A stretch of 64,000 nt of DNA, taken from NCBI RefSeq assembly GCF_057098645.1, contig NZ_CM169472.1; one strand, given 5' to 3'. Of the stretch, positions 6,001-8,812 are shown piece after piece. How positions within the stretch are numbered: the stretch's first letter is position 1; every line of letters starts with the position of its first letter. Made by a program: the position numbers.

Positions 6001-8812
6001 TAAGCGTCGACGGCCTCACGAAACATCTTTTCATCGCCAATAAAAGTGGCGATAGTGAATTTAGTCTGGATAGCCATAATTGTTTGATCCATTTTTTGGG
6101 ACTCCTGGCTGATTAAGTATGTCGATAAGGCGTTTCCATCCGTCACGTAATTTACGGGTGATTCGTTCAAGTAAAGATTCGGAAGGGCAGCCAGCAACAG
6201 GCCACCCTGCAATGGCATATTGCATGGTGTGCTCCTTATTTATACATAACGAAAAACGCCTCGAGTGAAGCGTAATTGGTATGCGGTAACGCCGCGCTCA
6301 GGCGGCCTTGATAGTCATATCATCTGAATCAAATATTTCTGATGTATCGATATCGGTAATTCTTATTCCTTCACTACCATCCATTGGAGGCCATCCTTCC
6401 TGACCATTTCCATCATTCCAGTCGAACTCACACACAACACCATATGCATTTAAGTCGCTTGAAATTGCTATAAGCAGAGCATGTTGCGCCAGCATGATTA
6501 ATACAGCATTTAATACAGAGCCGTGTTTATTGAGTCGGTATTCAGAGTCTGACCAGAAATTATTAATCTGGTGAAGTTTTTCCTCTGTCATTACGTCATG
6601 GTCGATTTCAATTTCTATTGATGCTTTCCAGTCGTAATCAATGATGTATTTTTTGATGTTTGACATCTGTTCATATCCTCACAGATAAAAAATCGCCCTC
6701 ATCTTGGAGGGCAAAGAAGATTTCCAATAATCAGAACAAGTCGGCTCCTGTTTAGTTACGAGCGACATTGCTCCGTGTATTCACTCGTTGGAATGAATAC
6801 ACAGCGCTGTGTTTATTCTGTTGTTTGCGTGAAAATGAAATCCGCCTGAGCGGGTTATGACCACTTTTTGTTTGGGTTTCGTTGGTGAGCGTGGTTTACA
6901 GGATTATTTGATATACCCCATAACTCTGACTCGCTTATCTCTACACGAGAGAAAGACCTGCTTTCTTTCAGTTCTTTTATAAACCTAGAACCTAAGATGA
7001 CATCTATTGTACCAGAAAGTTCTTGTAAAAGATCTTTGTTTTTTCTGAGGAAGAAAATATCTTCTTTATATTTAATTTTTACATAGAATTTATTCTGTAT
7101 TTTTAATATATCAAAGCATGGCAGATATCTATATCCCTCATATTTTCGCCACTGCTTAACAATTATAACATCTTTTTCATTTACTGCATTAATCAGCCCA
7201 AGACCAAGTACAGGTATGAATATTCTATTGTCTGCCGAAAGCGTACAATTATCACCACCAGGCAAATATGTATAAATCATGTCGGAATTTTTATACGCAT
7301 CAACGAATGCACGTAAGAAGCGTACATATTTTTGCCATCCGTTTATACCGAATTTACCATATAAGTATTCTTTATTTGTTAGAAGAAAACTATTTGTATC
7401 AGGATCCTTATCTACAGACCTGTCGATAAGATCTCCAACTACGTTTACAAAGTCAAAGACAGAGTTTAATAAGAACAATTGTCTTTCAGTAGGGCGAATT
7501 TCAATTATGTAGCCAGGATGAAGACGATATTGCATCTGCTTACGAAGTATACCGAACGCTTGGGTCCGAGCATCTGAAAGCAACTTCTTGTCGCCATCGC
7601 CGTGAGCATTGTTTCTAATAAAACTGATATAATTTGCTAATTTTTCAGCCTCTTTTTTGTGTTTTTTTCGCTCTGATGCTGAGTCTATTGGTTTTGGTAT
7701 GGACTTGTAATCAATCTTCTTCATTACGTACCTCATGCCAATGGAATGGATTCCCCTTTAACCTTTTGTCTTCCTTGACAAGTTATACCGAACTCACCTG
7801 GCTTGCTATACCAAACTCGATGATTCTTGCGCTCAATACGTTGCAGGTTGCTTTCAATCTGTTCGTGGTATTCAGCCAGCACCGTAAGGTCTATCGGATT
7901 CAGTGCGCTTTCTACTCGTGATTTCGGTTTGCGATTCAGCGAGAGAATAGGGCGGTTAACTGGTTTAGCGCTTACCCCAACCAACAGGGGATTTGCTGCT
8001 TTCCATTGAGCCTGTTTCTCTGCGCGACGTTCGCGGCGGCGTGTTTGTGCATCCATCTGGATTCTCCTGTCAGTTAGCTTTGGTTGTGTGTGGGAGTCGT
8101 AGTCCTGAACGAAAACACCCCGCAATGGCACATTGGCAGCTAATCCGGATTCGCACTTCCGGCCAATGCTTCGTTTCGTATCACACACACCAAAGCCTTC
8201 TGCTTTGAATGCTGCCCTTCTTCAGGGCTTAATTTTTAAGAGCCTCACCTTCAATGGTGGTCAGTGCGTCCTGCTGATGGCTTAAAATTACAAGGAAGAT
8301 TGTATGTTGTAAACAAGAAATATTGTAAAAAAGGGACGTGAAAAACAAACTCCATTGTTTTTAAACGGAAAATAGTTTGTTTTTTTGTTATCGAGATTGA
8401 GGTGGGGATTACTGATTGCAGGTTCCGACTACATCACCAACAAAGGATTTGGTTGATGTAAGTTGTTGCATACCTGGGATGTTCATTACTTTGGAGTAAA
8501 GAGCTTTTTTGTCTGTAGTGATTGACCAAGTTTCAACGGTTATGCCTCCTCCAGACTGGTATTCTCCTACCATAGTGTTCGATGACAAAGCAGTGTATTT
8601 CATCTCTGGATAGACGCCAGAAACTGATTCATAAACTGATGATTTATCGCCATTTATTGTTACGTTGAAAACGGAATCTTCCGTGCTGTCTTTTGTAAAC
8701 TCGTAACGATCGCCATTCATTGCCCCGTACCCGTGCAGGTTTGTGACAATCCAGCATTCAGAATTGGCGCTGGTAGTTAAGAGTATTGAGAGTAGCGCCG
8801 CAATCCTGATCA

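Follow-up and report, generated by a model that had tools for sequence, protein, structure and literature searches.

A gene beside N in phage 434 joins a Nun-type polymerase-arrest peptide to a head with TnpB-like features

The stretch of DNA analysed here, called the window below, comprises 64,000 nucleotides (nt) of contig NZ_CM169472.1 in assembly GCF_057098645.1, and the element in question is a minus-strand gene for a 289-amino-acid (aa) protein that lies against a lambda-type N gene. The gene occupies positions 6855..7724 with its stop codon included (TAA, 6857-6855). Two starts are possible on the minus strand, ATG 7736 for a product of 293 aa and ATG 7724 for one of 289 aa, and the former overlaps the N stop codon (TGA, 7735-7733) as ATGA; the reading frame, both starts and the tight junction with N given in the preliminary description of this DNA were thus borne out. 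A Shine-Dalgarno sequence GAGG, read from the sequence at 7731..7734 (minus strand), overlaps the N stop codon and stands 6 nt ahead of ATG 7724, where a ribosome-binding site is annotated in the record of phage 434. The 7724 start is also the one used by PHROG 12139, which matches the protein over its full length (289 of 289 positions, E 1.6e-205), by all full-length homologues and by the phage 434 GenBank annotation. The gene body has a guanine-plus-cytosine (GC) content of 0.342 (third-position GC, GC3, 0.30), below the 0.488 of N and the 0.505 of the window as a whole, in agreement with the AT-richness described earlier. Directly upstream, N (7733..8056, minus strand) encodes 107 aa, and the nutL boxB GCCCTGAAGAAGGGC is found at 8228-8214 on the same strand. 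Downstream, homology to lambda picks up again at about 6826, as proposed for a mosaic insert between N and ea10; by the lambda map this is consistent with a replaced ral/sieB interval. The stop codon is followed immediately by a hairpin CCGC-TCAG-GCGG with a T-rich run (6831..6854, minus strand). The terminator reported before ea10/DUF2528 (6666-6298, minus strand) is seen as an intrinsic-terminator-like minus-strand hairpin with a T-run at 6685..6714 (hairpin at 6714-6693), and is also annotated as a terminator in the 434 record.

The gene had been described as unassigned, but it is gene 48 of Escherichia phage 434. By tblastn the protein is 100% identical in the 434 records OL657226 and OL657227, where the gene, listed as CPT_434_48, "Nun C-terminal peptide-containing protein", is flanked by a lambda-type N and ea10; the window therefore holds a 434-like prophage. 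The 434 genome announcement contains no discussion of gene 48 (PMC9119081), and the literature searched held no paper that studies this gene, connects 434 to Nun or connects TnpB to Nun. The interval 6600-8300, used as a query, is present at 80% or more in 79 of 5426 complete E. coli genomes, O145 and O103 pathogens among them, where its annotation reads "hypothetical protein"; 1042 member sequences make up the cluster of identical proteins. The protein has no match in Pfam, NCBIfam or PADLOC, and none of the known defence or abortive-infection models in these sets fits it. Exhaustive HMMER and word-indexed searches returned a handful of relatives, and the full-length homologues are 68% (P0003), 47% (P0005), 42% (P0004) and 37% (P0006) identical to it. 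Synonymous sites are saturated between these lineages, so that the ratio of nonsynonymous to synonymous substitution rates (dN/dS) is not estimable for most homologue pairs. Because homologues at 37-68% identity with saturated synonymous sites, the identical cluster and the occurrence in E. coli genomes come together, the open reading frame (ORF) is by sequence criteria a real gene and not a chance ORF.

Nun is the textbook case in which one phage blocks another by locking the host polymerase in place; it is nearly a one-off in the phage collection searched (29 records, all at 92.7% identity or more). The preliminary description had recognised no motif in the 289-aa protein and had overlooked its C-terminus, where residues 276-289, VNHAHQRNPNKKWS (6858..6899, minus strand), form a Nun-type RNA-polymerase arrest peptide. 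These last 14 residues are identical at 14 of 14 positions to V96-S109 of HK022 Nun, and the matches to PHROG 5632 ("Nun-like transcription termination factor") and to chain N of PDB 6ALG are confined to the C-terminus. Residues 87-109 are the sole part of Nun visible in the elongation complex, and all known arrest determinants lie there (Kang et al., 2017, PMC5386594). The Nun peptide is threaded into the cleft of RNA polymerase, where it prevents translocation, N97, H98 and H100 making contacts with the RNA and the beta' rudder, R102 pairing with the C-terminal carboxylate, and K106, K107 and W108 lying in a pocket near beta' D329; N103A is a neutral control in the mutagenesis (PMC5386594).

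Every full-length homologue terminates in VNHAH-x-R-x-x-x-KKW, with V96, N97, H98, A99, H100, R102, K106, K107 and W108 (Nun numbering) invariant in the family, positions 101, 103, 104, 105 and 109 variable, and the free C-terminus one residue past the tail tryptophan, as in Nun. The nine invariant positions cover all seven residues that were picked for mutagenesis in the tail segment by Kang et al. At the invariant positions the codons differ between lineages (GTA, GTT or GTG for valine, all four codons for alanine, CGA or AGA for arginine, AAA or AAG for lysine), and different codons for the same residues, at saturated synonymous sites, amount to purifying selection on just those positions that are important in Nun. 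The DNA of the 434 gene shows no relation to that of HK022 nun up to the V276 codon (6899); from there the two are about 94% identical past the stop to about 6788 (block 6788..6899, minus strand), where HK022 carries IS903. Over the tail-coding DNA 42 of 45 nt are identical to HK022, compared with 67-74% against members of its own family over a comparable 39 nt, so that a 3' cassette has been swapped between nun and the 289-aa gene. The tail might be a functionless by-product of mosaic recombination in a protein whose role has nothing to do with RNA polymerase, and the block common to HK022 is indeed higher in GC than the gene body (0.438 vs 0.342). This is very improbable, since the homologues at 37-68% identity, which have no DNA homology to HK022, retain the nine tail residues through different codons, and the variable positions agree with the position that is dispensable in Nun. 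A tail-focused profile search of a set of 5.8 billion proteins gave 8 candidates and three Nun fragments, and was too insensitive to survey tail architectures.

Several short sequences also carry the tail. P0008 (96 aa, E. coli, NCBI) is a chimera of Bet residues 1-23 (MSTALATLAGKLAERVGMDSVDP) and the last 73 residues of the 289-aa protein; its Bet part is identical to the start of the window ORF 4787-5572, the linker and the Nun tail are retained, and it is a deletion derivative. P0021 (80 aa) joins an unrelated 23-residue N-terminus to Nun residues ~53-109, whereas only the C-terminal half of Nun, in diverged form, makes up P0022 (45 aa, Raoultella), with the last residues IVNHAHQRSPKKKWS; the tail is kept in both.

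The recurrence of homologues at the N-proximal slot, which had been put forward as a check, was found: in the window, L004 and L011/L012, N is followed directly by a gene of the 289-aa type. The HK022-type nun follows a phi21-type N directly in mEpX1 and in Stx1 phage 112808, and the placements of nun are right after N in mEpX1, Stx1 phages and PA28 and as the first gene in HK022. The homologue P0006 in L013 follows a 3' N remnant, and P0004 in L002 is the first gene past a cI-type repressor, as nun is in HK022, with no N gene upstream. The three intact upstream N proteins have a lambda-type arginine-rich motif (ARM) and lambda-type boxB is present, so a Nun specific for lambda boxB would be suicidal for these carriers. 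In Hafnia phage Pocitis76 (L027 2240-3180), two tandem small genes annotated "transcriptional regulator" occupy the slot directly after N. ORF43 (88 aa) starts with MDAQARRREKRKAKQEEWKKQNP, almost the ARM of lambda N, and has the Nun-type tail VNHAHQRNRHKKW at its end; its sequence suggests an N-ARM::Nun-tail chimera directed against boxB of the lambda type. ORF42 (101 aa) has another arginine-rich head and the C-terminal end VNHASQRNPKLKW. Both resemble the 434 protein in tail and slot, and differ from it in their small size, their arginine-rich heads and the lack of a TnpB-like domain. With the HK022-type nun and two Hafnia ARM-plus-tail genes in the same post-N slot, the tail is a portable module. 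An origin of the tail in the 289-aa family, with Nun as the derived chimera, was considered and no direction was assigned, as the Hafnia ARM-plus-tail proteins are also diverse.

Two of these loci deserve a further remark. In L002, operator-like repeats and a leader of ~200 nt (2801-3111) stand ahead of P0004, and the folding of the leader is no better than that of shuffles (z -0.29). In L013, a 45-codon ORF upstream of P0006 (9858-9995) ends in ...YDSLDNCCLPHVHIFSVNDKKNKTITAR, matching the C-terminus of the L011 N, and ninG lies beside this N-gene remnant in divergent orientation, an arrangement that hints at rearrangement of the prophage.

The part of the protein that bears the tail was examined by structure modelling. 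AlphaFold on a 13-sequence family alignment gave a predicted local distance difference test (pLDDT) score of 76.9 and a predicted template modelling score (pTM) of 0.70, compared with a pLDDT of only 37 for a single-sequence model; residues ~10-225 are modelled at pLDDT 80-95 and residues 232-289 are disordered. Residues 1-70 (7515..7724, minus strand) are a basic N-terminal extension with a net charge of +9 and two long helices in the model, confined to the Nun-tailed subfamily. Residues 71-230 (7035..7514, minus strand) are modelled as a TnpB/Cas12-like WED+REC core of a strand (72-77), a helical bundle (80-145) and beta-barrel strands with one helix (152-217), and contain the motif IIEIRPTERQLFLLNSVF. 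Residues 231-275 (6900..7034, minus strand) comprise a low-confidence helix followed by an acidic disordered linker that carries the tail and is ~20-45 residues long in the model; the family motif S-[FY]-[SA]-R-V-[ED] falls in this segment. Within this segment SGTIDVILG (residues 237-245) may, judged by sequence, be a vestige of the RuvC-I strand, and its Asp is not conserved.

The basic extension has a resemblance by eye to the ARM of N and Nun (SERKKHKKEAEKLANY vs SRDRRRIARWEKRIAY), which was not accepted as evidence. The basic helix is lysine-rich, the key aromatic residue is not conserved (Tyr32 is replaced by Cys in P0003-P0005 and by His in P0006), and BLASTP found no significant similarity to the Nun N-terminus (second high-scoring pair at E 0.95).

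In Foldseek searches with the model, the top ten PDB matches are all TnpB or Cas12 proteins (best E 2.1e-3), and the top BFVD matches are giant-virus transposases of the TnpB/Fanzor type; taken singly, these scores are modest. With hhalign, against a TnpB N-terminal alignment of ISDra2, ISFba1 and ten plasmid TnpBs, family residues 70-230 are collinear with TnpB 5-184 (score 26.75, E 0.0037); no column-shuffled decoy out of 398 scored above 19.4, which places the real score at z 6.3-6.6. Three hallmark motifs pair between the 434 protein and ISDra2 TnpB: IIEIRPTERQLFLLNSVF with VVRLYPNAAQTELINRTLG, RIFIPVLGLGLI with RLKLPKLGWVK, and KFYVKIKY with HYEASVL. In the model the WED beta-barrel is interrupted by a helical REC domain, as is characteristic of TnpB and Cas12. 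The head resembles ISDra2 TnpB (8H1J/8BF8), ISFba1 TnpB (8IAZ) and Cas12n (9UDI) in this WED+REC topology, in the N-terminal strand motif x-P-x3-Q-x3-L-x3-F/L-G and in the collinear profile alignment. It differs from them in that the RuvC domain with its D-E-D triad was not found (the hhalign match ends before the GxDxG RuvC-I motif of TnpB), a zinc-finger/TNB domain is absent from the 289 aa, which contain two cysteines in all, there is no adjacent omega-RNA and no IS200/IS605 context, no tnpA lies nearby and the upstream neighbour is N, and a 70-residue N-terminal extension and the Nun tail are added. A confident match to a family of non-defence function, of the kind that the preliminary description had asked about, was thus not obtained, the TnpB-like fold spanning the nucleic-acid-binding half without the nuclease domain. 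We regard a derivation of the head from TnpB as probable.

Distant relatives of the core (P0010-P0014, P0016 and P0017, 213-248 aa) are found at loci L005-L010 on small plasmid-like contigs that carry Replicase PF03090 and MazEF, the core gene sitting between a 108-aa and a 135-aa ORF. They share the TnpB-like core, without the 70-residue extension and without the Nun tail, and have at the C-terminus a different conserved basic tail, G-K-x-V-x-G-G-x-x-E-x-G-K-K-R (GG..GKKR), which may be another effector or targeting peptide.

Taken with the tail, these features make it more likely than not that gene 48 encodes a modular, tail-dependent transcription-arrest factor of the Nun class with a targeting head that is not an ARM. 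The basic two-helix extension and the TnpB-like WED+REC domain would together form a folded head of ~220 residues in place of the small arginine-rich boxB-binding head of Nun. By binding a particular RNA, DNA or complex close to a transcribing polymerase, this head would anchor the protein there and make the tail locally more concentrated, the part that boxB binding plays for Nun; the tail would then enter the polymerase cleft, block translocation and freeze the polymerase, as in Nun. Nun itself has a dissociation constant (Kd) of ~300 nM for non-specific elongation complexes and gains its specificity through boxB tethering. Lambda boxB should not be a target of the head, since 434 itself relies on N and boxB of the lambda type. 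Exclusion of competing phages or mobile elements would be the most likely role, and the specificity of the head could give self-immunity. The idea of an exclusion or host-takeover function advanced in the preliminary description therefore acquires a concrete basis in the C-terminal Nun peptide; its other part does not hold, as the protein is not a membrane protein of the sieB or abortive-infection type and has no PADLOC match.

The 434 protein is Nun-like in its identical last 14 residues (N97, H98, H100, R102, K106, K107 and W108 included), in a tail borne on a disordered acidic linker, in its position at the start of the pL operon, beside or in place of N, and in the shared 3' DNA block. It differs in being 289 aa long and folded over residues ~10-225, whereas Nun has 109 aa and is largely unstructured; in having a TnpB-like head where Nun has an arginine-rich boxB-binding peptide; in lacking H93 and R94; and in being borne by phages that use lambda-type N and boxB, for which the specificity of Nun is impossible. 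By this comparison it falls outside the Nun family as defined, though it would be Nun-like in its working.

A number of observations weigh against a tail-dependent arrest factor with a TnpB-like targeting head. For the tail, the two upstream-DNA contacts of Nun, H93 and R94, are replaced by N273 and N274 in the 434 protein, and R94A strongly weakens Nun binding (PMC5386594); polymerase may therefore be held less firmly by the tail alone, with more of the binding left to the head. For the head, the hhalign probability is only 8.9%, the 13 family members gave no OrfB/TnpB or RuvC match in Pfam at E<=10, the family profile found nothing among PDB sequences, and the model depends on an alignment of 13 sequences. 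We know of no WED+REC fragment without RuvC that has been demonstrated to bind nucleic acid by itself. No guide RNA, omega-RNA or put-type RNA was found by Rfam on the window and on L002. Finally, a consensus scan on the strand of the gene showed no sigma-70-like promoter in the 3' end of N, where one had been thought possible.

The absence of RNA matches bears also on a further explanation, namely that the head functions as an RNA-guided DNA binder, a TldR-like extreme among TnpB derivatives, which acts as a guide-directed roadblock or repressor with the tail merely reinforcing the block. TnpB and Cas12 are the best and the only strong fold matches, and prophage TnpB derivatives are known as RNA-guided repressors (PMC10705468). 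As modelled, the 434 protein would share with TldR and dCas12f-sigmaE a TnpB-derived, non-nucleolytic nature, a prophage or mobile-element location and an action on transcription. TldRs retain at least part of the RuvC scaffold, many having lost the C-terminal RuvC/zinc-finger part, and act by promoter occlusion with an adjacent guide RNA (PMC10705468). In the 434 protein, by contrast, the entire RuvC half and the TNB are gone, the hhalign match stopping before RuvC-I, no guide was found, and the effector would be a polymerase-invading peptide that acts on elongation. In TnpB structures, the RuvC scaffold and the TNB help to hold the omega-RNA. Around the gene, the only non-coding block conserved between lineages is the terminator-like hairpin, the distance from stop to next ORF is 46 nt in L002, N lies upstream, and Rfam is empty. 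An RNA-guided binder is accordingly unlikely; the 434 protein shares a domain with TnpB and is neither a TnpB nor a TldR.

The absence of a promoter is relevant to the timing of expression. A terminator-like hairpin follows the stop codon in five of five lineages; the copy in 434 is the weakest, and the hairpin is strong in the four others (L004 1678-1705, L002 3984-4015, L011 10874-10905 and L013 10890-10925). The gene would therefore share the N transcript made before the first pL terminator, as its last gene. The promoter scan gave no site upstream of the gene on its strand and two weak matches inside it, below chance expectation. The protein could be an immediate-early lytic factor for broad shut-off of host or competitor transcription, the phage's own polymerases being shielded by lambda-type N in an overlapping cleft path. 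Several points agree with this: in every lineage the gene is bounded by N and by the first terminator-like hairpin, so that it would be transcribed along with N and need no antitermination; no promoter-like site was found in the 3' end of N; the three intact N proteins have a lambda-type ARM, with lambda-type boxB present; and Nun arrests non-specific elongation complexes at a Kd of ~300 nM. However, a conserved folded head of ~220 aa suggests specific targeting over general inhibition, HK022 nun is active in lysogens although it lies in the same slot, N is missing upstream of the L002 homologue, and that N and the Nun tail exclude each other on polymerase is our inference. Lytic shut-off is on balance a possibility of minor weight beside the targeted arrest factor preferred here.

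A more ambitious version of the targeted arrest factor can be put forward, though we hold it doubtful: lambdoid phages may have recruited the TnpB recognition module (WED+REC), minus its nuclease, as a sequence- or RNA-directed head that delivers the Nun peptide to chosen complexes. If true, the phages would possess a naturally evolved elongation-arrest weapon open to retargeting, and TnpB would have undergone a fourth kind of exaptation after Cas12, TldR and dCas12f-sigmaE, with ARM heads and TnpB-like heads as interchangeable cassettes on one effector tail. The Nun tail of gene 48 was already flagged in GenBank; within the searchable literature, the conservation analysis, the cassette-like junction, the logic of the slot and the TnpB-like head are new. 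The 289-aa gene and the Hafnia genes together present the arrest peptide as a portable effector on different targeting heads in one genomic slot, and one of the tail-bearing heads appears to come from the TnpB/Cas12 lineage. Should that head be a specific nucleic-acid binder, it would show how elongation arrest can be given new targets, and domesticated TnpB would have gained a further fate. The gene is easy to test, being present in a classic phage, 434, and in no fewer than 79 of 5426 complete E. coli genomes.

Elsewhere in the window (9546-10508), the 434-type cro (ATG 9546, MQTLSERLKK) is interrupted after codon 10 by an insertion sequence of the IS3 family. The element shows the inverted repeat TGAACCGCCCCGGGTTTCCTGGAGAG from 9576 and a minus-strand transposase ORF with an rve domain at 9618-10508. 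With cro cut in this way, the prophage in the window is probably cro-defective.

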